Part shown: positions 11,861-31,400 of the stretch, in pieces
Position numbering within the stretch: the first letter of the stretch is position 1
Layout: the number at the start of each line of letters is the position of its first letter
IMG/VR virus record: IMGVR_UViG_3300037692_000352
Coordinates: 1-39,111 of that record
Reading direction: 5' to 3' (one strand)
Source: a virus
Taxonomy: Duplodnaviria > Caudoviricetes
Length of the DNA: 39,111 nucleotides
Notes under the pieces: generated by a model
What the model was told of the DNA's origin: nothing
The model's database searches: none
Seen by the model: only the letters and a program-made list of their open reading frames with translations
Program-made: the position numbers and the translations under genes

Positions 11861-12088
11861 ATGACCCCCTACGAACAGGCGCTCGCCGCGCTCGCCAAAC
11901 AGGTGGACCGCGTGATTGAGCCCGAAGACAGCCTCTTCCTCTGCTCCGAATGCGGCGTCGCCACCGACGAGGAGGACATCGTCTGGCAGCGCGGCGTGCC
12001 CGTCTGCGCCGACTGCCGGCACCAGGATGCGCCCGACCCCCGCGACTGGGACGACCACGAGCACGACCTGCGGAGGGAGGAGGCATGA
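11861..12088 (+). CDS. Small zinc-finger protein
   Basis: CSEC...CADC; ATGA-coupled to the next gene. Confidence 0.7.
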   Translation: MTPYEQALAALAKQVDRVIEPEDSLFLCSECGVATDEEDIVWQRGVPVCADCRHQDAPDPRDWDDHEHDLRREEA

Positions 12089-12972
12089 CCGACACCACGA
12101 CCATCACGCCGGTTCAGGCCGACTTCTCGTCGGTGCCCCTTCCCGAGTACCGCCTGTACCGCGCCGACACCTCGGGCGAATCCCGCTGGTACTACTGTCC
12201 GGAGACGGACCGGTACTACCCGTCCGTGACGAGCGTCATCGGCGCGACGACCCCCACGCCGTACGGTCTCCTCCAGTGGATGAAGACCCACGGGCACGCT
12301 GCCGACGACATCCGGGACGAGCGGGCCGAATACGGCACGTTCCTGCACCGCGAGATCGGGCGCCTGCTCAAGACCGGGGAGTACGACCTGGACGCCCTGC
12401 CGTCGGCCTGCCTGTCGGCAGCGATCGAAGCTGGCGAGTCGCGCCTTGCGGCCTCCTGGTACGCCGACGCGCGGAAGGACATCCTGGCTTTCGAGGCGTT
12501 CCGCCGCGAGAAGGAGGTTGAGCCCATCGCCATCGAGGCGGTCCTGAAATCGGAGGGGGGCTACGCCGGGGCCATAGACCTGGTATGCCTGCTGAAGTTC
12601 GGGCGCGGCCAGGTCGTGGCGATCGTCGACTTCAAGTCAGGGCGCAAAGGCTTCTACGAGAGCCACGAGATCCAGCTGCACATGTACCGGGCGCTATGGC
12701 AGGAGAACCTGCCGGACCTGCCCATCGGCATGCTCTTCAACTGGAGCCCCAAGGACTGGGTGTCGGCCCCGTCCTACAACCTCAAGAACCAGACCGACAG
12801 CCAGAACGCGGCCAAGATCCCGCATCTCATCGGGCAGTTCTCGGTCGGCTCCCAGGCGCCGCCGCGCCAGCTCGTCGTCCGGGGGAAGATCACCCCCGAC
12901 ACGCCACTCGATCGTCTCTTCGGCTTCGAGGAGATCCGCGATCGCATTCATCACACGAACAGAGCCGCATAG
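12085..12972 (+). CDS. PD-(D/E)XK (Cas4/RecB-like) exonuclease
   Basis: YPSVTSVI, GTFLH, YAGAIDL, IVDFKSG, QLHMY motifs; start ATG 12085 behind GGAGG. Confidence 0.85.
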   Translation: MTDTTTITPVQADFSSVPLPEYRLYRADTSGESRWYYCPETDRYYPSVTSVIGATTPTPYGLLQWMKTHGHAADDIRDERAEYGTFLHREIGRLLKTGEYDLDALPSACLSAAIEAGESRLAASWYADARKDILAFEAFRREKEVEPIAIEAVLKSEGGYAGAIDLVCLLKFGRGQVVAIVDFKSGRKGFYESHEIQLHMYRALWQENLPDLPIGMLFNWSPKDWVSAPSYNLKNQTDSQNAAKIPHLIGQFSVGSQAPPRQLVVRGKITPDTPLDRLFGFEEIRDRIHHTNRAA

Positions 12973-12976
12973 ACCC

Positions 12977-13654
12977 ATGGCAACCGAGAGAAAGTACCTC
13001 ACCACGCCCCCCGCGCCCGTGCGCTGGGCCAACCTCCTGTCGCCGGACTACCGCTTCGCCACGCAAAACGACCCTCGGGGCACCTACTCCATCGAGGTTC
13101 TTCTTGACCCGGCGCGCGAGAACCACGCCGCCATCCTGAAGGAGCTCGAGAATTACTGGGCTTCGGAGTACGAGGCCACCTGCCGCGCCGAGCGCAAGAA
13201 GGCTCTCGTCGTCCACGACAAGCCCTGGAAGACGGACACCGGCGACGACGGCGCGCCCACGGGCCTCGTCTCTCTGAGACCGAAGAACAAGGAGTACTTC
13301 ACCGACAAGGCCGGCAAGCGCGTCAACGTCACGGTCGACCAGTTCGACTCGCAGGAGACGCCCATCCGTGTGCAGATCGGCAACGGCTCGACCTGCAAGG
13401 TGAACTTCGAGGTGTTCGCCTTCTACCACGCGGGGAAGTTCGGCCTGAGCCTGCGCCTGCGCGCGGTCCAGGTGGTCGAGCTCGTCGACTTCGATCGCAA
13501 CTACGGCTTCGAGAAGACCTCCGGGTACGTCGGAGAGCGCTACGTGGCGCCCATCGCAACGGCCCACGAAGCCCCACGCGAGGTGCAGGCCGCCATGAGC
13601 GAAGAGGAAGTGCAAGACGGCTTCGGCACGGAGAACGACGAGCTGCCGTTCTGA
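12977..13654 (+). CDS. T7 gp2.5-like single-stranded DNA-binding protein
   Basis: TTPPAPVRWANLLSPD, IGNGSTCKV, GLSLRLRAVQVVELV, acidic C-terminus ending ELPF. Confidence 0.82.
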   Translation: MATERKYLTTPPAPVRWANLLSPDYRFATQNDPRGTYSIEVLLDPARENHAAILKELENYWASEYEATCRAERKKALVVHDKPWKTDTGDDGAPTGLVSLRPKNKEYFTDKAGKRVNVTVDQFDSQETPIRVQIGNGSTCKVNFEVFAFYHAGKFGLSLRLRAVQVVELVDFDRNYGFEKTSGYVGERYVAPIATAHEAPREVQAAMSEEEVQDGFGTENDELPF

Positions 13655-14097
13655 TGCCCAGGCCTCTCGACATCGTGCTGGACGTGGACGAGCGCGGGGA
13701 GATAGACCCCCGCCGGAGACTCTGGATGGACGATCAGATTCGTCTGTACGCTGGGGGGCGCGTTCGCATTCAGGTCTCCCGTCCACGCCGCACGACCCGG
13801 TCTAACGCCTACTACTGGGCCGGCGTGATCGAGCCCATCCGCCGGGCGCTGGCCGACGCCGGAAGGCCGACCGCCGCCGGCGTCCTGCACGAGTACTTCA
13901 AGGCGAAGTACCTCCCGCCCCGCATCATGGAATGCCTGGGCCACGACGTGGTCCTCGCGCCGTCGAGCTCCGGCCTCGACATGACTTCATTCTCGGACTA
14001 CGTCGAGGCGATCAAGCACGACGAGGACGTGCGCGCGCTCGGCGTGTGGTTCGAGGAAATGCCGGGATCACTGAAAGCCTTTGAGGAGGCCGCATGA
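13654..14097 (+). CDS. NinB/Orf-like recombination accessory protein
   Basis: RRTTRSNAYYW, LHEYFK, SSSGLDMTSFSDYVEAI motifs. Confidence 0.7.
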   Translation: MPRPLDIVLDVDERGEIDPRRRLWMDDQIRLYAGGRVRIQVSRPRRTTRSNAYYWAGVIEPIRRALADAGRPTAAGVLHEYFKAKYLPPRIMECLGHDVVLAPSSSGLDMTSFSDYVEAIKHDEDVRALGVWFEEMPGSLKAFEEAA

Positions 14098-16718: not shown

Positions 16719-18061
16719 CCAAGGAGAACACCATGAGAATCCAGCGCATCAGAATCCGCAACGTCCTCGGCATCGAGGAGCTCGAGTTCGAGCCGGGGCG
16801 GATCACCCAGATCACCGGCCGCAACGCCTCCGGCAAGAGCTCGATCGTCGAGGCTCTGAAAGCCGCCCTCGGCGGAGGCTCCGACGCGACGCTCCTCCGC
16901 CAGGGCGCCGACGACGGCGAGGTCGTCCTCGTGCTCGACGACGGAGCCGAGATCCGGCGTCGCATCACGGCCGACAAGCAGTCGCTCACCGTCAAGCACC
17001 CGGAGCTCGGGGCCATCGGCGCCGGCCAGACGTACCTGAACCGCCTGCAGGACACGCTCGGGCTCAACCCGGTCGAGCTCCTCACGGCGCCGCCCTCGAA
17101 GCGGGCGGAGTTCGTGATGGAAGCCCTGCCCCTTCGCGTGACGGCCGACGAGCTGCGCGAGGCGCTGCAGCTGGGCGAGGACTCCGGCGATGAGCTCGGA
17201 TCGAAGATCGCCGGCATGCTCGCCGTGGCCGAGGCCAACCACGCGCTCACGGTGATCGCCGGCGTGCGGCGGGCCGTCTACGACGCCCGCACCGGCGTGA
17301 ACCGCGCCGCGAAGGAGAAGCGCATCACGGCCCAGCAGCTCACCGAGGCCATCGGCGAGGCTGACCAGGATCCCGAGGGGATCCGGGGGACCCTCGCGGA
17401 GGTCCGGGCCGAGGCGGAGGAGGCCCACAAGGAGTTCGAGGAGGCGAGGCTGACGGTCATCGCGCACTTCCAGGACCAGGTCGACGAGGCCGTGGCCGTG
17501 TGCAACGCGGAAATCGAGGCGGCCCGCGGACGGCTGGAGCAGGTGAAGGATATCGCCAGGCTCGAGCGCGACAAGGCCCTCGAAGAGGTCATCGCGGGCT
17601 GGGGCGGCGAGACGTACGCCGTGATGCTCGCCGACCTCGAGTCGCAGCTCCAGGCAGCGAGCCGCGCCGCCCAGAGCCGTGAGACCCGCGACCGCCTGGC
17701 CGAGGACGCCGTCGTCGCCGAGCGCGAGGCGATCACACTGAGCGCCGCCCTCGATCGCCTCGATGCCCTCAAGGCGCGCCTCCTCGAGGAGTCGCCCCTC
17801 GACGTCGAGATCGGCGAGGACGGGGAGATCTACCGGGACGGCGTGCCCTTCTCGCGCCTCAACAAGGCGCAGCAGGTGGACATCGCGATGCAGCTCGCCA
17901 TCCTGCGCGCCGGCAAGCTGCCGCTCGTCTGCGTCGACGGTCTCGAGGTCCTCGACCGCGAGTCCTACGAGGCGTTTCTCGAGCGGGCCCGCCAGGAGGA
18001 CGTGCAGCTCATCGTGACCCGGGTCTCCGACGACGACCTGGTCGTAGCCGAGGCCGCGTGA
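16715..18061 (+). CDS. SMC/SbcC-like ATPase with coiled coil
   Basis: Walker A ITGRNASGKSS, long coiled coil, degenerate signature LNKAQQ, Walker B VCVDGLEVLD. Confidence 0.85.
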   Translation: MTKENTMRIQRIRIRNVLGIEELEFEPGRITQITGRNASGKSSIVEALKAALGGGSDATLLRQGADDGEVVLVLDDGAEIRRRITADKQSLTVKHPELGAIGAGQTYLNRLQDTLGLNPVELLTAPPSKRAEFVMEALPLRVTADELREALQLGEDSGDELGSKIAGMLAVAEANHALTVIAGVRRAVYDARTGVNRAAKEKRITAQQLTEAIGEADQDPEGIRGTLAEVRAEAEEAHKEFEEARLTVIAHFQDQVDEAVAVCNAEIEAARGRLEQVKDIARLERDKALEEVIAGWGGETYAVMLADLESQLQAASRAAQSRETRDRLAEDAVVAEREAITLSAALDRLDALKARLLEESPLDVEIGEDGEIYRDGVPFSRLNKAQQVDIAMQLAILRAGKLPLVCVDGLEVLDRESYEAFLERARQEDVQLIVTRVSDDDLVVAEAA

Positions 18062-18510
18062 TGGGAAGCCGGGGCCTGCCACCGATCGAAGAGCGTCATC
18101 CACTCGTCTACCGCCGAGCCATGTCCCGGATGCAACGGCAATCCCCGACCCACACCAGCCATCGCATGGTCCGCGGCGTTGTCGAGCTCGTCGCACAGTA
18201 TCACGGGATGCGCCCGGAGATCCTGCTTGCCCGCACTCGTGTCCGGGACGTGATGGATGCCCGACAGGTCGCCATGTACGTCGCCCGCCGCTGTACGACA
18301 GCAAGCCTGGTGCTCATCGGCAGGATCCACGGACGCCACCACAGCACCGTCATCCACGACATCAGGGCTGTCCAGAACCGGATCGACACGATCCCTGGCT
18401 ACGGCCGCTTTGTGGAGGGCATCGAGAAGGCGGCATCCCGTCGCACGGGCATCCACGCGGCCACCGTCCGCGCCATCATCCACCGAGCCGACAGGGGAGT
18501 GCCTGCATGA
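18058..18510 (+). CDS. Stand-alone DnaA C-terminal (domain IV) HTH protein
   Basis: VAQYHGMRPEILLARTR...ARQVAMYVARR...SLVLIGRIHGRHHSTVIH matches DnaA domain IV. Confidence 0.8.
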   Translation: MMGSRGLPPIEERHPLVYRRAMSRMQRQSPTHTSHRMVRGVVELVAQYHGMRPEILLARTRVRDVMDARQVAMYVARRCTTASLVLIGRIHGRHHSTVIHDIRAVQNRIDTIPGYGRFVEGIEKAASRRTGIHAATVRAIIHRADRGVPA

Positions 18511-19157
18511 CCGAGCCCTACTACAGCGACGAGATGGTGACGATCTACCACGGTCGTTGCGAGGACATCGTGCCAGAGCTGGGGCGCTTTGACCTGCTGC
18601 TCACGGACCCGCCGTATGGGATCGGGGAGGCGCGGGCCAACAACGCCAGTCGTGGCCGGTTGGCTGTAGCAAGGGATTACGGCGTGTCGTCGTGGGACGA
18701 CACCACTGCCGACCATGCCGTTGCGCTTGCTGTCGCCGCCTGTGACACAGCCATCGTGTGGGGCGGCAACTACTACTCCCTGCCGCCCTCGCCTTCGTGG
18801 ATCGTGTGGGACAAACTGAATGGGGCGACAGACTTTGCCGATTGTGAGCTGGCGTGGTCTAACGCGGGTCCAGCGTGTCGCAAGTTCACTTTTATGTGGA
18901 ATGGGATGCTTCGGGCCGAGCCCGGCATACGGGTACACCCCACCCAGAAGCCGGTCGCCCTCATGTCGTTCTGCCTCCAGTACGCGAAGGCGGAACCGGG
19001 GTGGCGCGTCCTCGACCCCTTCATGGGAAGCGGCACGACGCTCGTAGCCTGCCGCAAGGCGGGCATCCGCTCGGTGGGCATCGACGCCGAGGAGAAGTAC
19101 TGCGAGATCGCCGTGCAGCGCGTGGCACAGCGGTCCCTTTTCGAGGACGCACCATGA
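18507..19157 (+). CDS. N6-adenine/N4-cytosine DNA methyltransferase (beta class)
   Basis: DPPY, HPTQKP, VLDPFMGSGTT. Confidence 0.93.
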   Translation: MTEPYYSDEMVTIYHGRCEDIVPELGRFDLLLTDPPYGIGEARANNASRGRLAVARDYGVSSWDDTTADHAVALAVAACDTAIVWGGNYYSLPPSPSWIVWDKLNGATDFADCELAWSNAGPACRKFTFMWNGMLRAEPGIRVHPTQKPVALMSFCLQYAKAEPGWRVLDPFMGSGTTLVACRKAGIRSVGIDAEEKYCEIAVQRVAQRSLFEDAP

Positions 19158-19378
19158 CCCGCCCCGGACGCTACATCGAGGCCGAGATGAAGGCCCGAGG
19201 CTGGACGGCCCACCAGGTCGCCGAGGACTCCGGCCTGTCCGTCACCACCATCACCGGCATCCTCGCGGGCCGCGAAAGGATCACGCCCATCCGGGCGTTC
19301 GGGCTCGCGCGGGCCTTCGGCGTCAGCGAGGCGCTCTTCGTCGCCCTGCAAACTGCTTTCGAGGAGACCACCCGATGA
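19154..19378 (+). CDS. HigA-like antitoxin HTH protein (no toxin partner)
   Basis: PGRYIEAEMKARGWTAHQVAE...ILAGRERIT...LARAFGVSEALFVALQ. Confidence 0.75.
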   Translation: MTRPGRYIEAEMKARGWTAHQVAEDSGLSVTTITGILAGRERITPIRAFGLARAFGVSEALFVALQTAFEETTR

Positions 19379-19707
19379 CCCTCTTCGATTTTCCCGACTT
19401 CGAGCCCCGTAAGGCGTCGGATCCTCCTGCGTTCCACAACACGTCCGGCTTGAGGGGGGCGGACCTCGTGGAGGCGACCTGTAAGTCGCTCACGCAGGAG
19501 GAGCGGATCACGAAGCTCTTCCGCGCGATGCCCGACGGCTGGACCGCGAGCCCCGAGGACGTGCACCGCCGTATGGGCACGCGCGCTCCGCTGACCTCGA
19601 TCCGCCGGGCGATGACGAACCTCACGCGGCGGGGCGTGCTCCTGCGCACGGACGCCCAGAGGACCGGCCAGTACGGGCGCCCGGTCTACCTGTGGAGGGC
19701 GGCATGA
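19375..19707 (+). CDS. Winged-helix hypothetical protein
   Basis: SIRRAMTNLTRRGVLLRT...GRPVYLW. Confidence 0.65.
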   Translation: MTLFDFPDFEPRKASDPPAFHNTSGLRGADLVEATCKSLTQEERITKLFRAMPDGWTASPEDVHRRMGTRAPLTSIRRAMTNLTRRGVLLRTDAQRTGQYGRPVYLWRAA

Positions 19708-19811
19708 CCCTGCACTCCGCGCTCCTCGTCACGGGCCTCGTGGTCGTCGGCATCGTCTCGGGCCTGTGGATGGGGTACCTCCTGTTCCACCCAGACCACT
19801 GGAAGCCATGA
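19704..19811 (+). CDS. Small single-TM protein (35 aa)
   Basis: MTLHSALLVTGLVVVGIVSGLWMGYLLFHPDHWKP; ATGA overlaps on both sides; too short for the ORF track. Confidence 0.6.
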   Translation: MTLHSALLVTGLVVVGIVSGLWMGYLLFHPDHWKP

Positions 19812-20194
19812 CCCAACAGCACGAACACATCGCGCAGCGCCAAGTCGTCGCATGGGCGCAGGCGCAGTCCGGACTGCTGCCCGAGCTGCAGCTCCTCTAC
19901 GCGATCCCGAATGGCGGACACCGGATGAAGGCCGTCGCCGGGAAGCTGAAGGCCGAAGGCGTGAAGGCCGGGGTACCCGACCTCTGCCTGCCCGTGGCCC
20001 GCGGCGGATACCACGGACTGTACATCGAGATGAAGGCCGGGGCGAACCGCACCACGAAGCCGCAGAAGACCTGGATCACGGCGCTCTCGCGCCAGGGATA
20101 CCGGGCCCTCGTGTGCCACGGGTTCGAGGACGCCAGGGGCACCATCATCGACTACCTGGGGGCCGGGTCCCGCATGCTCGTGGAGGCCGCATGA
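19808..20194 (+). CDS. VRR-NUC domain nuclease (Holliday-junction resolvase-like)
   Basis: YAIPNGG, EGVKAGVPDL, LYIEMK, QKTW...GY motifs. Confidence 0.9.
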   Translation: MTQQHEHIAQRQVVAWAQAQSGLLPELQLLYAIPNGGHRMKAVAGKLKAEGVKAGVPDLCLPVARGGYHGLYIEMKAGANRTTKPQKTWITALSRQGYRALVCHGFEDARGTIIDYLGAGSRMLVEAA

Positions 20195-20430
20195 AAGCCA
20201 AAGCCTATTGGGCGGGAGACCTGGAGGCCGGGGGCCTCATCGTCGCCGCCGAAACCCCGGCGCAAGCGCGGTTCTTCGTGAGCCGCTACCTGTTCACCAA
20301 GGAGGATTTTCCGAACATGCGCGCCCGCCGGGTACCTGCGGCCGACGACCTGATCCGTTACGTGTATCCGATCCCCCACGCGATGGACCAGTACGCGAAC
20401 ACGCTCCCCTTCTACCACAACGAGGACTGA
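20191..20430 (+). CDS. Hypothetical protein (79 aa)
   Basis: GGAGG plus ATGA coupling; IVAAETPAQAR, RARRVPAADD. Confidence 0.65.
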   Translation: MKAKAYWAGDLEAGGLIVAAETPAQARFFVSRYLFTKEDFPNMRARRVPAADDLIRYVYPIPHAMDQYANTLPFYHNED

Positions 20431-20431
20431 C

Positions 20432-21022
20432 ATGACACCCCAGCGCACCGTCTTCAGCGAGGCGACCAACCTCGCCTACATCGTGGCCGGCATCACGATC
20501 CTCCTCTCGGCTCAGCCCACGGGGCCGATCGTCGGAGCGGCCTTCATCCTGCTCGGCATCGGGTCGTGGGTCTACCACCACTACTACGCCGAGTGGGCGA
20601 ACCTCATGGACGAGCGCGGCATGTACGTATGCTTCGCGGCGATCGTCGCGGCCGCGCCCTACCAGGAGATCCCCGAGCCGTGGGGCGGCCTCCTGGGGGC
20701 CGTCATCCTCGGCGTCGGCGTGCTCATGGCGATCGCTGCCGGGGACCCGCGCCTCGCGACGATGCGCACGATGCCCGCGTGGGCGCTCGCGCTCGTCGCC
20801 GCCGTCTGGTGGACATCGAATCTCGCGACGGCGGGCGTGCTGCTGGTCGCCTTCCTGCTCGTCGCCTTCCTGCGCGAACTGCCGGAGTCGAATTTCTGGA
20901 CGCCCAAGGCGTGGTTCCGAGAGCGCTACGACGGCCTCCACGGGCTCTGGCACGTCGGCACGTGCTGCCTGATGCTCATGGCGTGGATGGCGATCATCGG
21001 GATCTGGGGGGTGGGACGATGA
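20432..21022 (+). CDS. Multi-TM CREST-superfamily (alkaline ceramidase-like) membrane hydrolase
   Basis: TNLAY, GIGSWVYH (SxxxH), LMDERGM (D), HGLWH (HxxxH) motifs in order; about 6-7 hydrophobic helices. Confidence 0.72.
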   Translation: MTPQRTVFSEATNLAYIVAGITILLSAQPTGPIVGAAFILLGIGSWVYHHYYAEWANLMDERGMYVCFAAIVAAAPYQEIPEPWGGLLGAVILGVGVLMAIAAGDPRLATMRTMPAWALALVAAVWWTSNLATAGVLLVAFLLVAFLRELPESNFWTPKAWFRERYDGLHGLWHVGTCCLMLMAWMAIIGIWGVGR

Positions 21023-21291
21023 CGAGTGACGAAATCCTGAGACACCGGGTCAACTCATTCTTGTTGCCGCCGCCGGGCGGTGAGGCTGTGCGGTTCATTC
21101 TCGACGAGTTGTATCGCCACGGCGACGAGAGGGCGAAGGAGGAGCGGGAGCGGATCGTGGATCACCTCACTTGGCTGGCGGGCACCTACCACGACACACG
21201 CGACAAGGACGCCGCAGATGCACTTTCGGATGCCGCATACCGCATCGAACGCGGCGACCACCTGACGCCGCCCACGGGCGGGGAGGGATGA
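21019..21291 (+). CDS. Cassette ORF 1, hypothetical (90 aa, ends PPTGGEG)
   Basis: ATGA overlap with the upstream stop; ends in the repeat. Confidence 0.7.
   Translation: MTSDEILRHRVNSFLLPPPGGEAVRFILDELYRHGDERAKEERERIVDHLTWLAGTYHDTRDKDAADALSDAAYRIERGDHLTPPTGGEG
21268..21287 (+). repeat. Cassette junction repeat 1
   Basis: CCGCCCACGGGCGGGGAGGG followed by ATGA. Confidence 0.95.
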
Positions 21292-21533
21292 CCATGGCCG
21301 ACTACCGAATGACCGACGAGGAACTGGAAGAACTTAAGAAAGCATCCAGACCCGTACCCTATCTCATCATGGGAGGGATGCCTCCCCCCTCGCCCCGCGA
21401 AAACGCGATGAGGGTATGGAGAAAGATCGCCCAGCGTGTCGGGTGTGTCGTAGACACGATCGCTCCACGAGGCGGCGACCCGCACGATTTTTCTGCTACC
21501 GCCAACCCGCCGCCCACGGGCGGGGAGGGATGA
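21288..21533 (+). CDS. Cassette ORF 2, hypothetical (MTMADYRMTDEELEEL...PPTGGEG)
   Basis: Starts directly after repeat 1 and ends in repeat 2. Confidence 0.75.
   Translation: MTMADYRMTDEELEELKKASRPVPYLIMGGMPPPSPRENAMRVWRKIAQRVGCVVDTIAPRGGDPHDFSATANPPPTGGEG
21510..21529 (+). repeat. Cassette junction repeat 2
   Basis: CCGCCCACGGGCGGGGAGGG. Confidence 0.95.
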
Positions 21534-21537
21534 GGGG

Positions 21538-21873
21538 ATGGGCCGAGCACATTCCATCGGGCGCGATGCAGCAATCGCCCTCTTCGAAACGCGATGGTGG
21601 GAGTCTGCCACCGACGACGAGATCGTGCGCGTTCAACTGTGGACCCGCGAACTCTGCATGGACTTCGGGCGCTTTCATCAGGCGATGGAGGCTGTCCTTG
21701 GCCGACCCGTGTGGACGCACGAGTTCGCCGAATGGGGGCACCTTCAGGACGAGGTGGAGGGCAAGGTCGCCGCGCCCTCCTTCGATGAGATCGTGGCGAT
21801 GATCCCCGAGGGCAAGCGCATCGTGATCGTAATACCCGACCCCGAACAGCCGCCCGCGGGCGGGGAGGGATGA
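21538..21873 (+). CDS. Cassette ORF 3, hypothetical (111 aa, LGRPVWTHEF motif, ends PPAGGEG)
   Basis: Lies between repeats 2 and 3. Confidence 0.8.
   Translation: MGRAHSIGRDAAIALFETRWWESATDDEIVRVQLWTRELCMDFGRFHQAMEAVLGRPVWTHEFAEWGHLQDEVEGKVAAPSFDEIVAMIPEGKRIVIVIPDPEQPPAGGEG
21850..21869 (+). repeat. Cassette junction repeat 3
   Basis: CCGCCCGCGGGCGGGGAGGG. Confidence 0.95.
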
Positions 21874-22160
21874 CCGTGAAGAAGGAGATCGTATTCAGCA
21901 CATTCCGTGGGGATATGTGTGACCCGACCGAATACTATGTTCCCTACAAGGAGGCATCGGCCGGAATCGAGCGCGCCCTCGCCCTCGCCGACGAGCGGGT
22001 GAAGGAGGAGCGCCGTGCGTGCAGGGACATTGTGCGGCAAGAGGCATACGATTTCGAGAGGAGTGGGAACACGGTGTCGGTAGCACTACATCGACTCGCC
22101 GACCATATCCATAGCCGCGACCACCTGACGCCGCCCACGGGCGGGGAGGGATTACGATGA
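21870..22160 (+). CDS. Cassette ORF 4, hypothetical (96 aa), C-half paralogous to ORF 1
   Basis: Lies between repeats 3 and 4; DERVKEERR...RDHLTPPTGGEG. Confidence 0.75.
   Translation: MTVKKEIVFSTFRGDMCDPTEYYVPYKEASAGIERALALADERVKEERRACRDIVRQEAYDFERSGNTVSVALHRLADHIHSRDHLTPPTGGEGLR
22131..22150 (+). repeat. Cassette junction repeat 4
   Basis: CCGCCCACGGGCGGGGAGGG; identity to repeat 1 extends to 36 bp (22117-22152 vs 21254-21289). Confidence 0.95.
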
Positions 22161-22408
22161 AGGTAATCGCATTACACGAGACCCCAACCAACGAGGGCAC
22201 CGACTCGTTCGTGGTCGGGCAGCCGGGGTGGTTCAGAATGGACCGCATCGCCGTCGTCACGAAGATCGCCTGGTGCTCCACGGGTGAACACGAGGATGAT
22301 GGCAAGTGGGTTGTGGATACCGAGGACGGGGGCCAAATAGTGTACCCACCGAATGCTGTCGCTGTACGAATCGAGCAAGAGCCGCCCGCGGGCGGGGAGG
22401 GGACATGA
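22157..22408 (+). CDS. Cassette ORF 5, hypothetical (83 aa)
   Basis: Lies between repeats 4 and 5; ends PPAGGEGT. Confidence 0.75.
   Translation: MKVIALHETPTNEGTDSFVVGQPGWFRMDRIAVVTKIAWCSTGEHEDDGKWVVDTEDGGQIVYPPNAVAVRIEQEPPAGGEGT
22382..22401 (+). repeat. Cassette junction repeat 5
   Basis: CCGCCCGCGGGCGGGGAGGG. Confidence 0.95.
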
Positions 22409-22638
22409 AGGAGACGAGTACACCCATGCCGGGCAGGGGCGGTCAAATATGGCGCGAGAGCCGGGAACTCGCCATGGCCACCGTCCGCGACTGGCACCCT
22501 ACGTGCGAGATGTGCGGGCACGCGAGCGACTGGGACGAGGAATCGGCATCCTGTCCGTTCACGGGATTCGTCGCCCGAGACGACTACTGCAACCACCACA
22601 CCTTCCTCGAAGCCACGACAATCGAGCCCCCCGCCTGA
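22405..22638 (+). CDS. Cassette ORF 6, Cys-rich putative metal-binding protein
   Basis: ATG after repeat 5; CEMCGH...C...DDYCNHH; ends EPPA (truncated repeat-like end). Confidence 0.7.
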   Translation: MKETSTPMPGRGGQIWRESRELAMATVRDWHPTCEMCGHASDWDEESASCPFTGFVARDDYCNHHTFLEATTIEPPA

Positions 22639-22641
22639 CCC

Positions 22642-22905
22642 GTGCCCAAACCCTCCATCACCCCCGCCACGCGTCTCGCCGACCACATCATGGCCCAGCT
22701 GTCCTATCTCGACACGGGCGCGAAGGAAGCCCTCGCGTGGTACACCAAGGCCGAGATGCGCGCGTGGTTCGAGGGGTACGGCTCGGGCGTGAGGGCGCGC
22801 CGCGACGCCGTGATCCGCGTCCTGGAGCGCACCGTCTTCGCGGACGACATCGAGGCGGGGCGCATGGCGCGGTACCGGCCCGAGGCCACCGACCAGGCGG
22901 CATGA
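22642..22905 (+). CDS. Hypothetical protein (87 aa)
   Basis: GTG start, GC-biased codons, ATGA coupling to the excisionase. Confidence 0.6.
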   Translation: MPKPSITPATRLADHIMAQLSYLDTGAKEALAWYTKAEMRAWFEGYGSGVRARRDAVIRVLERTVFADDIEAGRMARYRPEATDQAA

Positions 22906-23117
22906 AGGACCCCGAGACCATAGGCGGCGTGCGCGCCCTGCTCGGCGACGACGCCCTCGTCACCGAGCGCGAGGCGGCGGAGATCCTGTGCGTGCACGTG
23001 GACACCCTGGCCCGGATGCGGCGCTCGAAGGAGATCCCCTACGGGCGGATCGGCAAGAAGATCGTCTACTCGGTGGGCGTCATCCGCCGGGTGGCCCGGA
23101 TGGCGACGGCCGCGTAG
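22902..23117 (+). CDS. Excisionase-like (MerR-type HTH) protein
   Basis: LVTEREAAEILCVHVDTLARMRRSKEIPYGRIGKKIVY; immediately upstream of the integrase. Confidence 0.8.
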   Translation: MKDPETIGGVRALLGDDALVTEREAAEILCVHVDTLARMRRSKEIPYGRIGKKIVYSVGVIRRVARMATAA

Positions 23118-23141
23118 ATTCCGGCCGGAGGACCACCGGCC

Positions 23142-24194
23142 ATGCTCGTCCCGCGTACGCCGATCCTGTACAAGCACAGGAAGCGGTGGAATCTGATTTT
23201 CTACGACCCCGCCACGCAGAGGCAGAAGTGGCTCGCGCTCGGCACGGGCGACAAGGCGGCCGCCGAGCGACGCGCGAAGCCCATCGTACAGGCCTACGAG
23301 CGGCAGGAGTTCAACCCGTGGAGGGATACCTGGTCGAGCGGGACGCCGATCCTCGCCGCCCTCGACGCCTTCACCGCGCGCCCCGACCTCAAGGATCGCT
23401 CGCGCGATAACGCGGCATACCTCGTCCGGCGGCTCGCGCGTGCCATGCCGTCCGGATCCACGCTCGAGATGGTGACCGACGCCGACGTGCGCCGCATCGT
23501 CCTCGCTCCAAGCTCCGTCGACGGCAAGCACTCCTACCGCCGCACCCTCGCGTCGTTCTTCTCGTGGTGCATGAAGCGCGGCCTCGGAGCGGACAACCCC
23601 GCGTCCCGCATCGTCCTCCCGAAGAAGATCCGCCGCTCTCCGCGCTTCCTGACCAGGGCCCAGGCCGTGCACCTGCTCCGGACCGAGACGAACCCCGAGA
23701 TTCAGAGCCTCATCCGCTTTGCGCTCGGGTCGGGCCTCCGCCGCGGCGAGCTCGTGACGCTGAGGCGCGCGGACGTGAGCGCAGAGCGCGGGACGATCAC
23801 CGTGCGCGGGGAGATCGCCAAGGGCTACGCCGACCGGATCGTCCCCCTCGGAGCCTGGGCCCGGCAGGCCGTCGAGGGGCGCCCGGACCACGGCGTCCTC
23901 TGGCCGCTGCGCGGTGAGCATGCCTCGAAGCGCGTGAAGCGGAGCCTCACGGCGGCGGGGCTCGGCGCGTTCAACCTGCACTCGCTCCGCCACACGTTTG
24001 CCAGCTGGCTCCGCATCGGGGGCGCCCCGCTCGACCGGATCCAGTACTGGCTCGGGCACCGCTCGATCACGACGACCGAGATCTACGCGCACCTCCAGCC
24101 GGAGGCGATCCTGGGGGAGTTCGAGGTCGCGTTTTCCGGCCCTGCCCTTGGACCCTTATTGGAAAGCGCGGAGTCTGTAGACACAAGCCCTTGA
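23142..24194 (+). CDS. int: Tyrosine integrase
   Basis: SGLRRGEL (R), K, HSLRH (HxxR), LGHRS (H), TTEIYAH (Y). Confidence 0.95.
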   Translation: MLVPRTPILYKHRKRWNLIFYDPATQRQKWLALGTGDKAAAERRAKPIVQAYERQEFNPWRDTWSSGTPILAALDAFTARPDLKDRSRDNAAYLVRRLARAMPSGSTLEMVTDADVRRIVLAPSSVDGKHSYRRTLASFFSWCMKRGLGADNPASRIVLPKKIRRSPRFLTRAQAVHLLRTETNPEIQSLIRFALGSGLRRGELVTLRRADVSAERGTITVRGEIAKGYADRIVPLGAWARQAVEGRPDHGVLWPLRGEHASKRVKRSLTAAGLGAFNLHSLRHTFASWLRIGGAPLDRIQYWLGHRSITTTEIYAHLQPEAILGEFEVAFSGPALGPLLESAESVDTSP

Positions 24195-24207
24195 CCCGCA
24201 AGGGCTT
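24185..24207. terminator. Hairpin at the integrase stop (possible terminator between convergent operons)
   Basis: AAGCCCTTG-acccg-CAAGGGCTT. Confidence 0.5.
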
Positions 24208-24221
24208 TCGGCCCGTCACAT

Positions 24222-24270
24222 TCTGACTTTTAATCAGAGGGTCGCAGGTTCGAGCCCTGCCGGGATCACC
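24222..24270 (+). tRNA. 3' half of tRNA-Lys(UUU), the attP core (partial, not a functional tRNA)
   Basis: Anticodon arm TCTGA-CTTTTAA-TCAGA, T arm GCAGG-TTCGAGC-CCTGC, acceptor 3' strand CGGGATC-A-CC; no 5' acceptor strand or D arm upstream. Confidence 0.9.
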
Positions 24271-24360
24271 GTTTTTGAGCCGCTGTGGCAGGGTCAACTC
24301 CGGTAATCCCAGACAATACACGATTCAAGACGGCGCACGTTCTTGGCGCCTTATTGGAAC

Positions 24361-24612
24361 TCACCGCCGCGAGCGGATGATCTCGTTCTCTTGCATGAGG
24401 ATCTTCCGGACCCGCTCGCAGTCGTCGAGATCCTTCGCGGCCTTCTCGGCGCGCAGCTCGGCGTGCGTGGCCGCGCGGTCCTTGTCCTTGATCCGGTCGC
24501 GCTGCGCCTTCATCAGGTATCCGAAGAGCGCGCTGATCGCGGCGAACGCCGCCGTCAGGATGTTCTGCACCGAGAAGAGGTCGGCACTGGCGAGGTCTTG
24601 TGGGGTCATCAT
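24361..24612 (-). CDS. Single-TM coiled-coil protein (holin/antiholin-like)
   Basis: ILTAAFAAISALFGYLM then charged coiled coil; last gene of the late operon. Confidence 0.6.
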   Translation of the reverse strand: MMTPQDLASADLFSVQNILTAAFAAISALFGYLMKAQRDRIKDKDRAATHAELRAEKAAKDLDDCERVRKILMQENEIIRSRR

Positions 24613-24622
24613 GGCGGGGTGG

Positions 24623-24901
24623 TCAGAAGTCGCAGGTATCGTTCCGCTGGATGCGGTTCAGGCACTGGATGATTTCCCTGAGGCTCTCGTCGATCTGCCG
24701 GTCCATCTCGGCCTGGCTACGCGTCAGCTGCTGCTGCGTGACGTACGTCGCCTCGACGTGCACGAGACGCTCGGTGTGGTTGTCGAGCACCCGCCCGATG
24801 CTCACGCGGTCGGAGACGGCCCAGCCGATGGTGAAGGGCACCACGAACGCCACGAACCAGATCAGCCCTTTTGATAGCGCGCCTCGCCAGGAGTCATTCA
24901 T
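24623..24901 (-). CDS. Single-TM coiled-coil protein (lysis accessory candidate)
   Basis: MNDSWRGALSKGLIWFVAFVVPFTIGWAV then coiled coil. Confidence 0.6.
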   Translation of the reverse strand: MNDSWRGALSKGLIWFVAFVVPFTIGWAVSDRVSIGRVLDNHTERLVHVEATYVTQQQLTRSQAEMDRQIDESLREIIQCLNRIQRNDTCDF

Positions 24902-24929
24902 GCTCTCTCTCGGTTCGGGTGTGGGTGGT

Positions 24930-25145
24930 TCAGTTGCTCTCGGCCTTGCCGTTGGTCCCCTGCAGCTTCTTGGCGAGCGCGAGGGCGCCGGCAAGCCGTG
25001 AGAGGTTCTGCGTGTTGAGATCGAGCGCCTTCGCCAGCTCCTGGCGCTGGGTCTCGTAGGACCGGATGTCCTGCTCGAGCTTCGTGATCCACCCCTCCAG
25101 AGAGGTGGGTTCGGATTCGATCTTCGGCTTGTTGCTCATGGTCAT
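24930..25145 (-). CDS. Small coiled-coil protein (possible fibre chaperone)
   Basis: ATGA coupling to the fibre gene; WITKLEQDIRSYETQRQELAKAL. Confidence 0.6.
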   Translation of the reverse strand: MTMSNKPKIESEPTSLEGWITKLEQDIRSYETQRQELAKALDLNTQNLSRLAGALALAKKLQGTNGKAESN

Positions 25146-26749
25146 TCGGTGTCGAGTTGGAAGTCGGCCCACGGGAGTTCGATGGAGACGCCGGCCTCGG
25201 GGAGCTCCAGGTGCCAGTCGGCCCACGGGAGTTCGAGCGTGATGTCGGCGATCGGAATAGGGTTGCCGGCACCTTCGATGGTGCCGAGGCCGGCGATGAC
25301 CAGCGCCCCGAGCGTGATCGCGCCAGAGCCCGAGATGAAGACGAGGCCCGATCCGGCAAGCTGGAGGCCTCCGAGCGTGATGGATCCCACGCCGGAGATG
25401 GGCACCTCGCCGACACCCGTGATGGTCAGGCTACCCAGGACGAGTGCTCCGGCCCCGGACACGTGCACCTGTCCGGTTCCGGCCACGATCGGGGGTCCGA
25501 GCGTCAGGGCGCCCGCTCCGGAGATGGCCACGGACCCGGCACCCGCCACCACGAGCGATCCGAGCGTGATGGCCCCCGAGCCCGTGATCGCTCCTGTGGT
25601 CGTGCCGTAGCCCTCGATGAGGAGAGAGCCGAGCGTCAGGGCGCCTGCGCCGGAGATCGCTACCTGGCCCGCGCCATCCACCGCCAGGGATCCCAGCGTG
25701 ATCGCCCCGGCTCCGGAGATTGCCACGGAGCCTGTACCCGTGACGACGGGTGCGCCGAGGGTGATCGCGCCCGCTCCGCTGACCGCCACGGTACCGGCGC
25801 CCGCGATGACCAGCGCCCCGAGCGTGATCGCGCCAGACCCGGACACGGGCACTTCGCCCACGCCGACGACGACGAGATTACCGAGCGTCAGGGCGCCGGA
25901 TCCGGATACAGCTACCTGTCCCACCCCTGCGATGACCAGAGCCCCGAGCGTGATCGCTCCGGACCCGCTGACGCCGCCGACGGTGCCGACGCCGTCGACA
26001 AGCAGACCGCCGAGCGTGATGCTACCCGCTCCGGAGATGGCGACTGCACCGGCTCCGTCGATCGAGAGGCCCCCCAAGGTGACGGCCCCCGCCCCGGATA
26101 CCGCGACCTGGCCCGAGCCCACGGGCTGCAGGCCCCCGAGCGTGATGGCCCCTGAGCCGGAGACGGCCACCTGTCCGGTTCCGGCGATGACGAGGCCGCC
26201 GAGCGTCACTGCGCCCGATCCTGTGATCCCCGCCACCTCCGGCGTGTACGTCCCCGTGATCTCCGCGTAGTCGACGCGGATGCCGTTCGTGTCGCCCCCC
26301 TTGACCTTGGTGATAGTAAGGGCCAAGCGCAGCAACGCGTTGTTCATCTGCGCCTTCGTCGGCGTGCCCGAGATCGTGAAGGCCAGCGCCCCCGAATCCT
26401 GGCGCGTCGTCGCCGTGATGCCCGTCGCCACCGTCCGCGTGGCGGTCAGCGCCACAGGCGACGCCTCGTCCGTGACGAGCTGCGCTGTGAGCGAACGCGT
26501 GTTGGTCTGCGCGCCCGTGACGCGGTACCCGATGAGGAGGTTCAGCGTGTCCGCCGATCCGAAGTCCGCGTCCACGTCTGACAGGCGGTAGTACCCGATG
26601 ACGCCGGCGGTGGCATTGGTGTCGTCTCCGACCTCGTTGCCATCCGGAGACGCCGATCCCTCGTTGATGTCCTCGAAGGTCCCGACGCCCCAGCCGTTCG
26701 TGACGTTGACGGGGGCGCCGTCAGGGAGAAGAGGGGTCAGCGTAGCCAT
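25142..26749 (-). CDS. Fibre-like virion protein: N-terminal globular domain plus 15 Gly-rich 21-aa repeats
   Basis: Repeat consensus ISGAGAITLGALVIAGTGQVA; C-terminal ELP triplet repeats. Confidence 0.8.
   Translation of the reverse strand: MATLTPLLPDGAPVNVTNGWGVGTFEDINEGSASPDGNEVGDDTNATAGVIGYYRLSDVDADFGSADTLNLLIGYRVTGAQTNTRSLTAQLVTDEASPVALTATRTVATGITATTRQDSGALAFTISGTPTKAQMNNALLRLALTITKVKGGDTNGIRVDYAEITGTYTPEVAGITGSGAVTLGGLVIAGTGQVAVSGSGAITLGGLQPVGSGQVAVSGAGAVTLGGLSIDGAGAVAISGAGSITLGGLLVDGVGTVGGVSGSGAITLGALVIAGVGQVAVSGSGALTLGNLVVVGVGEVPVSGSGAITLGALVIAGAGTVAVSGAGAITLGAPVVTGTGSVAISGAGAITLGSLAVDGAGQVAISGAGALTLGSLLIEGYGTTTGAITGSGAITLGSLVVAGAGSVAISGAGALTLGPPIVAGTGQVHVSGAGALVLGSLTITGVGEVPISGVGSITLGGLQLAGSGLVFISGSGAITLGALVIAGLGTIEGAGNPIPIADITLELPWADWHLELPEAGVSIELPWADFQLDTE
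25272..26228 (-). repeat. Degenerate 63-bp coding tandem repeat (15 units)
   Basis: Recurring (c)cgagcgtgat/cgagcgtca about every 63 bp, encoding the 21-aa unit. Confidence 0.9.
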
Positions 26750-28474: not shown

Positions 28475-31400
28475 TTATGTCGAGTACAGTCCCGTGATCT
28501 CCAGGTATCCGACCTCTATGGCTGTCGTGTCGGCGCCGCCGCTGGCCGTGTACGTCTGCTTGTACTCGACCACGGCGTCCATGAGGTCGGCGCGCGTCGC
28601 GGCCGTGTTGACGTAGGTGAAGGCCGTCTCTCCCGTCGTGGTGCTGGTCGTCGTGGTAATGCCCGTGGCTACGTCCTGGAACGTGCCGCCCGAGTTGGCG
28701 GCGGCGATGATCGTGGAGCCGCAGACGACGCGGATGGCGAGGTCGTAGTCGTCGTCGGTGACGGCGCTCGCCATCTTGTACTTGAGGTTGTAGTTCAGCG
28801 CCACGAGACCCGTGAGGTCGGAGGGCGGCGTGGACCGCTTGAGGACCGTGAAGAACTGGCTCGACTGCGGGTTGGCGAAGAGGAGGTCCCCGCCGCTGTT
28901 GCCGAGGGCGAGGCCGTAGATGTGGTGCGCCGCGATGGAGTCGTAGATCGTGCGGCGGCTCGTGCCCGTGGAGATGTCCCACGCCGTGGAGAGGTCCCAC
29001 GCCTCGATGCTCTGCGCCGTGATGCCCGATACGTAGAGGCGGCGCCCCGAGGCGTCGAAGTCGAAGCCATAGGGGTCGTTGCCGACGGCGAGGCTCTTGG
29101 AGGCGTACGCTGCCGTGGACAGGTCGTAGGGCGTCGAGAGGTTGTACTGGAAGATGTTCTCGTTGGTCGTGGCGTTCTGGAGCAGGTACAGCCTCGCCCC
29201 CGCGTTCCCAAAGCGGAGACCCCAGCACACACCAGCACCCACCCCCAACTCGGTCGATGCGTCGAGCGACACGGAGTCGTAGGTCGCGCTCGTGACGTCG
29301 TAGTTGGTGCCGAGCGAGTACTGGTACACGAGCGGCGAGTCCTCTTCCGCGACGTACATCTTGGAGCCGTCGGCGTTGAAGTCCACGCCCACCTTGATGG
29401 AGGACGTTCCTTCGGTAGACGTGTAACTCGTGGCGGCGCCCACGGTCGTGATGTCCCACGCCGTGGACAGGGTCCGCTGGTAGATGTTGGCGTTCGAGGA
29501 CTCCGCGTAGAAAATCTTGGTCCCCGAGGGATGCCACGTGAGCCACCGCACATTGGCGACGCCCACGCTTACGGCGCTGCCGTAGGCCGTGGAGAGATCG
29601 TGCGCGGTCTTGAGGCGCACGATGGTCGCGCGGTCGGAGTTGAAGCCCGTGAATGCGATGAACGTCCCCGAGGGGTCGATCCACATGGCCGTCAGGGTCG
29701 TCTCGACGGGCGCCGCCAGCGTCGTCGCGGACCCCAGGCTCGTGATGTCCCACGGCGTGGACAGCGTGTACTGGTTGAAGTCGTTGCCCGTGTCGCCGAG
29801 CATATACATCTTCGCGCCGTCGTCGGAGAAGGCGAGGCCCCGAGGCAGGGTGTCATCCCCAGACAGGAGTTGCGACGCCACCGACGATCCCCCCGTGGAC
29901 ACGTCGTAGGGCGTGGACAGCGTGTATTCGTAGACGGTGAGCGACGTACCCCCCATCACGAAGAGGGCCGTGCCGTCCGGCTTCATCCACACGTCGGCCG
30001 GGGCGCTGTCGTCGGCAGAGACGGAGAGCGACTTCGAGGCGTACGATCCCGTGGTGATGTCCCACGGCGTCGTGAGGTCGTACTGGTAGACGGCGTCCGT
30101 ACCCTGGTTGGCGACGTAGACGGACGTGCCGTCGGGGCGCCAGCAGTGGCCCGCGGGCGTAGTCCCCTCGGAAGAGCCGTTGAGGCCCATCGTCCCGGCC
30201 GCCGTCGCGGAGGCCACATCGTAGGGCGCATCCAGCGTGTACCACACGAGGTTGTCGCTCGTGGATCCCGAGATGTAGAGGTTGAGGCCGTCCGGGGAGA
30301 GGCTGATGCCGCGGGGGACCGACTCACTGGCCACCACAAAGAACCACACGTTCGACATCGCCTTGCGGAGCGGGAACAGGTCCTGCGCCCGCGTGGCGGT
30401 CGCGTCCTCCGCGAAGCGGTACCAGTAGAGGTCGTCGCCAGAGAGTTCGCTGTGCGCGATGGTGATGGCCGCCAGCGTCTCGCCCGCCGCCGTCCCCGCG
30501 TGCTCGGCAGGGCTCGGGTAGAAGTAGAACGTATTCGCATCCGACCAATGCCCCACGATGCGCGAGATGGTGGGGGCTGTAGTCGTGATCTCGCCGGCCG
30601 TCTCCGAGACGTACATGGCCTCGTTCGGAAGCCCCGTGCCGAGGTTCGTGTGGCGGATGAAGCCCCCCGGCAACAGGAACGTCCCGGTCGCCGCAGCACT
30701 CACCGCGGCGGGCGCCATGAGAAGAAAGCCGTTCGTGGTCTCGGCATCCGAGGCGTCGGCCTTGATGACCTCCCCCGAGCCGTCGAGCGTGCAGAGGTCG
30801 GCGGCCGCGATGGCCACGGCCGCGGTGCGCGTCGTCCACGGCTGCGTGTAGTCGCCGGAGGCTCCGAGCGTGGAGTCGGTCTGGGAGGATGTCGCGCCCG
30901 AGGTAGGTACCGGCCACACCTGCCGCCACACCGTGTCCGAGAAGTCCTTGATGTAGAGGACGCCGTGCGTCGTGTCCCACGCGAGGTCACCCGCGTCGCC
31001 CGTGCCGCTCGGGGGAGAGCCGTCGTAGGTGTCGATCCATACGGTGGGGGCATCAGGGATCGCGGCCCACTCCAGAAGATTCGGGCTCCCGGTGCTGGCG
31101 ATCCGAAGCACCTCGCCCGAGGCCGGGGCGTCCGTCGGCCAACGGAAGGACCCGGCGGAGTTCGTGATGGACACGTTGCCCGTAGCCGAGATCAAGACCT
31201 CTCCGCTCGTGGAAATAACGGCAACGGGACCGCTGGACTGGAGGTAGAGGTCAACCTCGGACTGCACCCGCGCAATCCCGAAATCCGTGTCCGCCCAGAT
31301 GGCGATGTACTCGACCGTCGGGGTGTCGATGTCGTCGACGATGGAGTACGACCGCCCCGAGACCTTGCTAGCCGACGCTTCCAGTCGGATGCCGTCGTAG

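Follow-up and report, generated by a model that had tools for sequence, protein, structure and literature searches.

An array of six small genes (c1 to c6) in the genome of a sediment phage is rearranged among related genotypes: five of the genes end in copies of the same 20-nt repeat, here called the linker, and gene content and order differ at this repeat. The genome is the window of our analysis, the whole of the IMG/VR record IMGVR_UViG_3300037692_000352 (Duplodnaviria; Caudoviricetes; 39,111 nt with a 127-nt terminal repeat), in which the array lies just upstream of the xis and int genes. The array works like the linker and promoter early stem-loop (PeSL) exchange known from other phages and is not a new integron. 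Judging from the sequences compared, it is probably shuffled by short-homology recombination, carried out by the phage exonuclease and annealing proteins or by host RecA, and the unit of exchange is often half a gene, at internal hinges unlike the repeat.

The repeat had been noticed in an earlier note on this DNA, which described five tandem in-frame copies, exactly one open reading frame (ORF) per unit and no copy elsewhere in the genome. All of this is borne out. The five exact copies lie on the plus strand within 1134 nt, at spacings of 242, 340, 281 and 251 nt, and each overlaps a gene end, where the upstream ORF runs through it in frame as PP(T/A)GGEG; neither strand of the window holds a further match with up to 3 mismatches. 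By chance 0.23 +/- 0.49 copies are expected (100 shuffles), and none of the 100 shuffles reaches five. The synonymous codons are the same in all five copies (CCG CCC RCG GGC GGG GAG), and with phage codon usage another four copies would show the same five codons with a probability of only ~2e-7; the identity of the repeat therefore exists at the DNA level. Among copies of the same type (A or G at the variable base) exact identity extends over 22-36 nt, and copies 1 (c1) and 4 (c4) have 36 nt in common, not 20. The first 14 nt of the linker form a palindrome (6-2-6) with a 5-bp GC stem in all five copies, the sole variable base lying in the loop. The last codons of the upstream ORF are followed in each copy by GGAGG and then by a stop codon overlapping or near the next start. 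Degenerate copies had also been proposed for both edges of the array. At the right edge this is supported, because c6 ends in the full repeat in two other sequencing runs (X4 and X5, see below), so that the end of c6 in the window would be a worn linker copy; the left edge copy at 21067 is weak by itself, because its 4 mismatches are a level met 1.7 times per simulated genome and it sits 16 codons inside c1.

The rearrangements are seen on metagenomic contigs. Part of the region 18000-26000 is present in 17 sequencing runs, and contigs of six of them (X1-X6), placed at a likeness threshold of 85-90%, were compared; X1 is possibly the source run, and the other five are sediment or soil runs. 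The flanks of the array are near-identical (~96-99.6%, with 2 differences in 539 nt for X2 and 5 in 824 nt for X3), and the flank proteins are 95-99% identical. Within 20960-22720 the contigs of four runs contain 16 distinct joints, 14 in a main set and two more; their ends show how far the shared sequence extends, and the crossover itself may lie elsewhere. One end falls within 15 nt of a linker copy in 11 of the 16, and the other five joints are found at internal hinges or at the c1 start. At the linkers, c6 passes through a full linker into the start of c4 in X4 and through a linker into the start of c3 in X5, and in both runs c5 with its linker is followed by the 9 letters that stand after linker 2 in the window. 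A 1026-nt contig of X4 leads from the front of c1 through 92 new letters into linker 2 and c3 (190 nt on the short side); c2 is missing from it because the joint bridges this gene. At the hinges, an X4 contig joins c4 (21881-22000) to c1 (21135-21282), with a 120-nt side and 12 shared letters. In X3, c3 enters a c1/c4-type tail 14 nt before the 20-mer (a skip of 281). Foreign loose ends of 59 to >255 letters precede linkers, in X1 as well, and the X1 contigs break one base past the A/G position of copy 5, which suggests that an A-type linker enters c6 there. An X5 contig (243 nt, depth 4) carries a c6-type end and a linker ahead of c6, which fits a circle, a tandem or a paralogue alike. The lower depth of c5 in X1 (9.6 vs ~17) and the missing cover of c2 in X2 and X5 were given no weight. 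The cassettes are exchangeable units, as the earlier note had supposed; instead of a fixed gene order with conservation of the peptide only, we find differing orders and codon identity at the DNA level.

In a wider comparison, six of 15 joints fell outside or only partly within the array and were set aside: four of these have <30 nt on a side, and one is a look-alike stretch elsewhere in the phage. The sixth, a joint of X6 (20280->20421) upstream of the array, may be a real replacement. A contig of X2 shows ~14 clustered changes in xis (22959-23075) with a nearly identical integrase part, and the xis gene seems to have been exchanged too.

The main contig joints are confirmed by whole proteins from related contigs (P0024-P0038, compared as protein sequences) that match them. 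P0024 combines the front of c4 (37/45 identical) with the back of c1 (34/36), and P0025 the front of c1 (36/40) with an unrelated new back (5/28). P0026 and P0027 are new genes sharing hinge and tail, and P0037 and P0038 are c6 hybrids, the start of P0038 matching the loose end at 21541. P0029 is c3 with a single change, T/A in the tail, while P0030 (c4) and P0035 (c5) end in GGEG, compared with GGEGLR/GGEGT in the window, which implies other downstream neighbours. The paralogues c1 and c4 (43% over 56 amino acids) have 23 of 30 nt of their hinges in common, and the seven proteins of their family that we compared comprise four front types and five back types. The idea of one-gene modules thus holds in that whole genes are permuted at the repeat, but it is incomplete, as half-genes are also swapped at the hinges. 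The linker tail is an add-on to c3: it is missing from 20/20 distant homologues of its family, DUF7736, and from all 65 C-termini read in 80 viral DUF7736 loci.

We propose the following mechanism. The linker would be the coding end of each accessory gene and would carry the likely ribosome site of the next. The phage exonuclease and annealing proteins (or host RecA) would cross over at homologies of 12-36 nt. Since all the genes close with the same seven codons, GGAGG and an overlapping stop/start, a crossover in the linker would yield a full-length upstream protein and keep the gene after it translatable within one early transcript, so that most products would be viable and the linker would spread to each newly captured gene. 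A crossover in a hinge would keep the frame and give hybrid (N x C) proteins. Short-homology recombination is favoured because exchange occurs at at least three unrelated short homologies, unlike the action of a site-specific recombinase, and because the phage encodes an exonuclease, a Gp2.5-like annealer, NinB/Orf and a VRR-NUC nuclease. The linker identity comes near the minimum quoted for Red-beta (23-27 bp; RecA, 31-34 bp), and Gp2.5-like proteins are counted as a recombinase superfamily, with Orf and Rap aiding mosaic formation (PMC3945230; this and the other articles given by PMC number are cited from parts of their text).

Several points weigh against this mechanism or its reach. The runs are mostly 2020 sediments, maybe of one campaign, and the contigs with related proteins may share samples. 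Six of the 14 joints of our main set have <30 nt on the short side, a length flagged as unreliable. For exchanges at the linker the exact base of the crossover is not identifiable, so that the linker may instead be cut at a fixed point. No match to a Rad52-type recombinase was found in the phage, and Gp2.5-like proteins may serve mainly as single-stranded DNA-binding proteins. Finally, the Shine-Dalgarno (SD) function of GGAGG is uncertain, because SD-like words are enriched before phage starts (14/32; control windows, 7 and 4), whereas no such enrichment is seen in Rhodothermia loci sampled from the host class (L086-L107, L194-L213; 5/55 vs 5 and 3, a small and crude sample); the ribosomes of Bacteroidia, a related group, ignore SD (PMC9976891).

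The earlier note had called the array possibly integron-like and had named the neighbouring tyrosine integrase or the phage annealing system as its agent. In the first case the integrase, with or without Xis, would recombine the linkers as an integron does attC. Such a site-specific cassette system would account for an array 500 nt upstream of xis/int, for a repeat that is near-invariant in the window and holds a palindrome, and for cassettes that are single-gene and promoterless: in 20900-23200 no sigma-70-like promoter was found (0.3 expected), though host promoters may deviate from the consensus scanned, and no terminator match was found in the array, where the linker stem lies in coding sequence without a T-tract. 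The integrase, however, stays far below the cut-offs of the IntI models (60.7 bits against 265 for TIGR02249; 37 against 435 for PRK15417), with phage integrase phrog_1 as its best family, and it has its own attachment site (attP) with a tRNA-Lys core directly after int. Linker and attP region have only a 6-nt word in common, and no pair of attC cores (consensus RYYYAAC...GTTRRRY) within 40-150 nt occurs on either strand of 20961-22720. Hinges unlike the linker are exchange points as well, and the tails PAGWEG and PAGAEG in related genes imply, as far as can be read from protein, uncompensated breaks of the stem. An integrase-driven array is therefore very improbable, and the integrase is likely a prophage integrase acting at attP/tRNA-Lys only. 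The same tail variants count against a structure-guided form of homologous recombination, in which the GC hairpin of the linker, nicked or stalling replication, would focus exchange that annealing then completes. The stem present in every copy, with its only variable base in the loop, speaks for this, as do the upstream genes for an SbcC/Rad50-like ATPase, a partner of which might act on the hairpin, and for the VRR-NUC nuclease, and a speculation by Arbiol et al. on a GGGC/GCCC-directed route in T4-like phages (PMC2839356). Yet four of the five copies fold no better than shuffles (z -1.41 to +0.83; one copy -2.09) and hinges without a noted hairpin are also used, so that we regard a guiding hairpin as unlikely.

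The repeat might instead be kept as a translation signal, i.e. a ribosome site resembling the start-associated sequences (SAS) of mycobacteriophages, or as a shared C-terminal tag, with shuffling a passive by-product without selective role. GGAGG does stand 4-9 nt before an in-frame start at all five copies. The next start had been placed 0-8 nt downstream of each repeat; starts are indeed near every copy, but the ATGs at 0 nt after copies 1 and 3 sit only 1 nt from GGAGG, and the in-frame starts 21294 and 21876 (7 nt from GGAGG) are likelier. Most genes of the operon overlap by ATGA, several of them ending in EAA with GAGG inside, and the tail residues E and G are conserved in 10/10 aligned rows of the c1/c4 family. 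Against a signal or tag, synonymous positions are identical while the peptide varies among relatives (T/A, G/W/A, E/D), which fits recent copying and not peptide selection; the tail is predicted to be disordered (predicted local distance difference test, pLDDT, 44 in the c1 model and 62-73 at the c3 end), and SD use by the host is not evident. We hold this explanation to be decidedly unlikely; it can coexist with the recombination mechanism, from which it departs only in the reason for retaining the linker. A bolder extension of short-homology recombination would make the array a selected combinatorial protein generator, the linker permuting genes and the hinges mixing modules into a population library of hybrid early effectors, possibly by way of 230-340-bp circles and a hairpin-directed nuclease. 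We give it a small chance; if true, one phage population would hold a library of hybrid effectors, e.g. counter-defence or lysis-lysogeny modulators. The positions of the array and of the other genes discussed are collected in Table 1.

Table 1. Linker copies, cassette genes, hinges and neighbouring features in the window
Feature	Position	Strand	Remark
Linker copy 1, A type (20-mer 21268-21287)	21254..21289	+	36 nt identical to copy 4
Linker copy 2, A type	21510..21529	+	
Linker copy 3, G type	21850..21869	+	
Linker copy 4, A type (20-mer 22131-22150)	22117..22152	+	36 nt identical to copy 1
Linker copy 5, G type	22382..22401	+	
c1, 90-aa (amino acid) ORF: N-module, EERER hinge, C-module, linker tail	21019..21291	+	paralogue of c4
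c1 internal hinge (DERxKEERER)	21123..21149	+	joint ends fall at 21119-21161
c2, 81-aa ORF, likely start 21294	21288..21533	+	bridged over (absent) in X4 contig
c3, DUF7736 protein	21538..21873	+	linker tail an add-on, missing in distant homologues
c4, 96-aa ORF, likely start 21876	21870..22160	+	
c4 internal hinge (DERVKEERR)	21989..22012	+	X4 joint 22000->21135
c5, 83-aa ORF	22157..22408	+	different neighbour after c5 in X4 and X5
c6, 77-aa Cys/His-rich ORF, apparently worn linker at end	22405..22638	+	
c6 hinges, two	~22471-22521 (ATVRDWHPxCExC); 22578-22602 (DYCNHHT)	+	internal
Candidate recombination genes: exonuclease (phrog_298), Gp2.5-like ssDNA (single-stranded DNA) annealer (phrog_112), NinB/Orf (phrog_72)	12085..14097	+	family matches; within early operon of the array
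VRR-NUC nuclease / Holliday-junction-resolvase-like gene	19766..20194	+	upstream of array
xis-like HTH_17 gene	22902..23117	+	
Tyrosine integrase, phage type (phrog_1), not IntI	23142..24194	+	
Putative attP core	24222..24270	+	48-49 nt identical to tRNA-Lys(TTT) 3' half, 7 Rhodothermia genomes

The cassettes are AT-richer than the genome, as had been remarked, but the difference is modest: compared with 19 other genes of the early operon, their GC content is 0.63 vs 0.68 and their GC content at third codon positions 0.75 vs 0.89 (Mann-Whitney p=1e-4). DUF7736 (Pfam) for c3 is the only family assignment among them; c1, c2, c4, c5 and c6 are without any family, NCBIfam gave no match for the cassettes, and no Pfam match to Ead_Ea22 or DUF551 was found for c1-c6 or seven related proteins. 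Among 1.84 billion representatives c4 matches only itself (E<=0.001). The structure model of c1 is of low confidence (pLDDT 64.6; four helices, the hinge within a long helix) and has no Foldseek match at E<=0.001, while that of c3 is confident (pLDDT 92.6), with nothing in BFVD at E<=0.001 and a best PDB Z of 3.2, so that neither model gives a functional clue. An anti-defence role, for which the earlier note had suggested testing the cassettes, is without support from PADLOC (0/14 proteins match), the models of which cover defence and not counter-defence. Our best guess is that the cassette proteins are non-essential early host-interaction or lysis-lysogeny factors, because the position of the array parallels the lambdoid exo-xis region, the Ea22 proteins of which favour lysogeny and are mosaics whose C-terminal domains are unrelated (PMC10834534).

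CheckV estimates the completeness of the record at only 49%; despite this figure, terminase, portal, protease, capsid, tape measure, replication and integrase genes are present. A long early operon on the plus strand begins at ~11.6 kb and extends to the array, xis and int, in the order exonuclease, Gp2.5-like annealing protein, NinB/Orf, replication initiator, DnaB, SbcC-like ATPase, methyltransferase, VRR-NUC nuclease, array, xis, int. The 3' half of a tRNA-Lys(TTT) gene, the sole Rfam match, follows int directly, and a 47-nt piece of it has exact matches in 7 of 185,579 species genomes, six of them titled Rhodothermales or Rhodothermia and one 'Bacteroidetes'. As this is the usual anatomy of attP, we infer that the fragment is attP, that the phage is temperate and that its host is likely a member of the Rhodothermales. 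The phage is apparently enriched in SD motifs within a host that may not use them. The fixed left flank of the array is a ceramidase-like membrane protein gene (20432-21022; Pfam PF05875, E 6e-5, below cut-off), presumably of the CREST type. A second junction motif, GAGGCCGC followed by ATGA/GTGA, stands at three gene overlaps of the early operon (14086-14097, 18050-18061 and 20183-20194), where the protein tails end in EAA. Repeats were also seen in a 535-aa protein with a Gly-rich 21-residue repeat (25142-26749, minus strand) and in a tail-region protein of 1957 aa with ~50-residue repeats (28475-34348, minus strand).

Searches for similar arrays were largely negative. The exact 20-mer occurs at 4 IMG/VR loci and 76 JGI metagenome loci, one copy each; none of these 80 loci contains a tandem array, even with up to 3-4 mismatches allowed, or, by tblastn, a homologue of cassettes or flanks, although the collections scanned may lack the records closest to the window. 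Some have longer palindromes, and several are what we take to be lysyl-tRNA-synthetase-like coding matches. The longer c1/c4 tail pattern has no viral match, no relatives turned up in IMG/VR with the integrase or the AAA-ATPase as query, and a search with the c1/c4 alignment hit one of 301 host-class genomes (E 8e-4). Linker matches at 2 mismatches occur in 18 of these 301 genomes, at about control level except in one Rhodothermia genome (G109), which has ~30 dispersed GC-rich palindromic matches (control 13), possibly a family resembling repetitive extragenic palindromic (REP) elements. Upstream of 20 of the 30 Rhodothermia integrase matches, few of which looked like prophages, no region had a clustered repeat (0/20). 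As controls, clustered repeats were found in three of 80 VRR-NUC loci and in five of 80 DUF7736 loci, one of which (L243) passes a strict gene-end test while two (L270, L262) are looser analogues; junction repeats elsewhere are uncommon but recurrent. In L243 (2168-4840, IMG/VR) a DUF7736 gene stands amid four attC-like elements (TAAC...GTTAT, ~50-95 nt), which we take, by the attC consensus, to be a true integron-type cassette array with the gene family of c3. L270 (600-1290) has a repeated SD+ATG block and L262 (1569-2470) a repeated promoter-like block before small genes.

The question of how small accessory genes are acquired and reordered in phages while the operon stays intact is of long standing, and well-documented linker cases are few. 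The present array adds one from a natural population and a little-studied likely host (Rhodothermales), in which whole-gene permutation is combined with half-gene swaps at 12-30-nt hinges; it is a compact, testable substrate for phage annealing proteins at very short homology, and its hybrid genes show one route to ORFan proteins. The earlier statement that the organisation is undescribed is too strong, since linker or boundary sequences, PeSL cassettes and the repeats of Cluster O mycobacteriophages are published precedents. In a search of mainly open literature, supplements excluded, we found no account of this phage, or of a promoterless linker that is coding and is accompanied by in-frame swapping at hinges; PMC2629481, in the part used, treats general phage mosaicism only.

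The lambdoid boundary sequences, described under the modular theory of Botstein and for HK620 (PMC2839356, PMC3029335), had been named as a loose precedent: here too genes meet at a short conserved sequence that in relatives is flanked by unrelated genes, and homologous exchange that preserves placement and expression is proposed. Unlike them, the linker occurs in five copies in 1.1 kb and is translated as the tail of the upstream protein, and it allows reordering within the array besides allelic replacement. The PeSL cassettes of T4-like phages (RB49/phi1, T4/PST, KVP40/nt-1; PMC2839356, PMC4122927) likewise have a repeated GC stem-loop element with a 3' SD between small ORFans, at which insertion, deletion and replacement occur with no dedicated recombinase. 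PeSLs, however, lie between genes as promoter-terminator units, belong to lytic phages and are proven to form mini-circles, while our linker is coding, 20-36 nt long, from a temperate phage and without a sigma-70 promoter or terminator match; identity with PeSLs was accordingly rejected. The Ea22/Ead genes (PMC10834534) are small early genes just upstream of xis/int with high gene diversity and a mosaic structure, as here, but they pair a shared helical segment with unrelated C-terminal parts, whereas in our array N- and C-modules both vary around a 5-10-residue hinge and all carry the linker tail. In Cluster O mycobacteriophages recombination at 17-bp repeats accounts for gene gain and loss (PMC4351075), and the SAS of Cluster K are oriented repeats with SD, 3-7 bp before non-structural starts (PMC3203893). 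Both kinds of repeat are widely scattered in their genomes, with 30+ copies in Cluster O, and are interpreted as regulatory sites; the linker is confined to one array of permuted order, and membership in the SAS family was rejected, all five copies lying close together with no dispersal over the non-structural half. With integrons, finally, the array shares tandem promoterless one-gene units, variable in content and order, next to a tyrosine recombinase, but it has no IntI and no attC cores, its attP is that of a phage, and the exchange of half-genes at hinges is without an integron counterpart.

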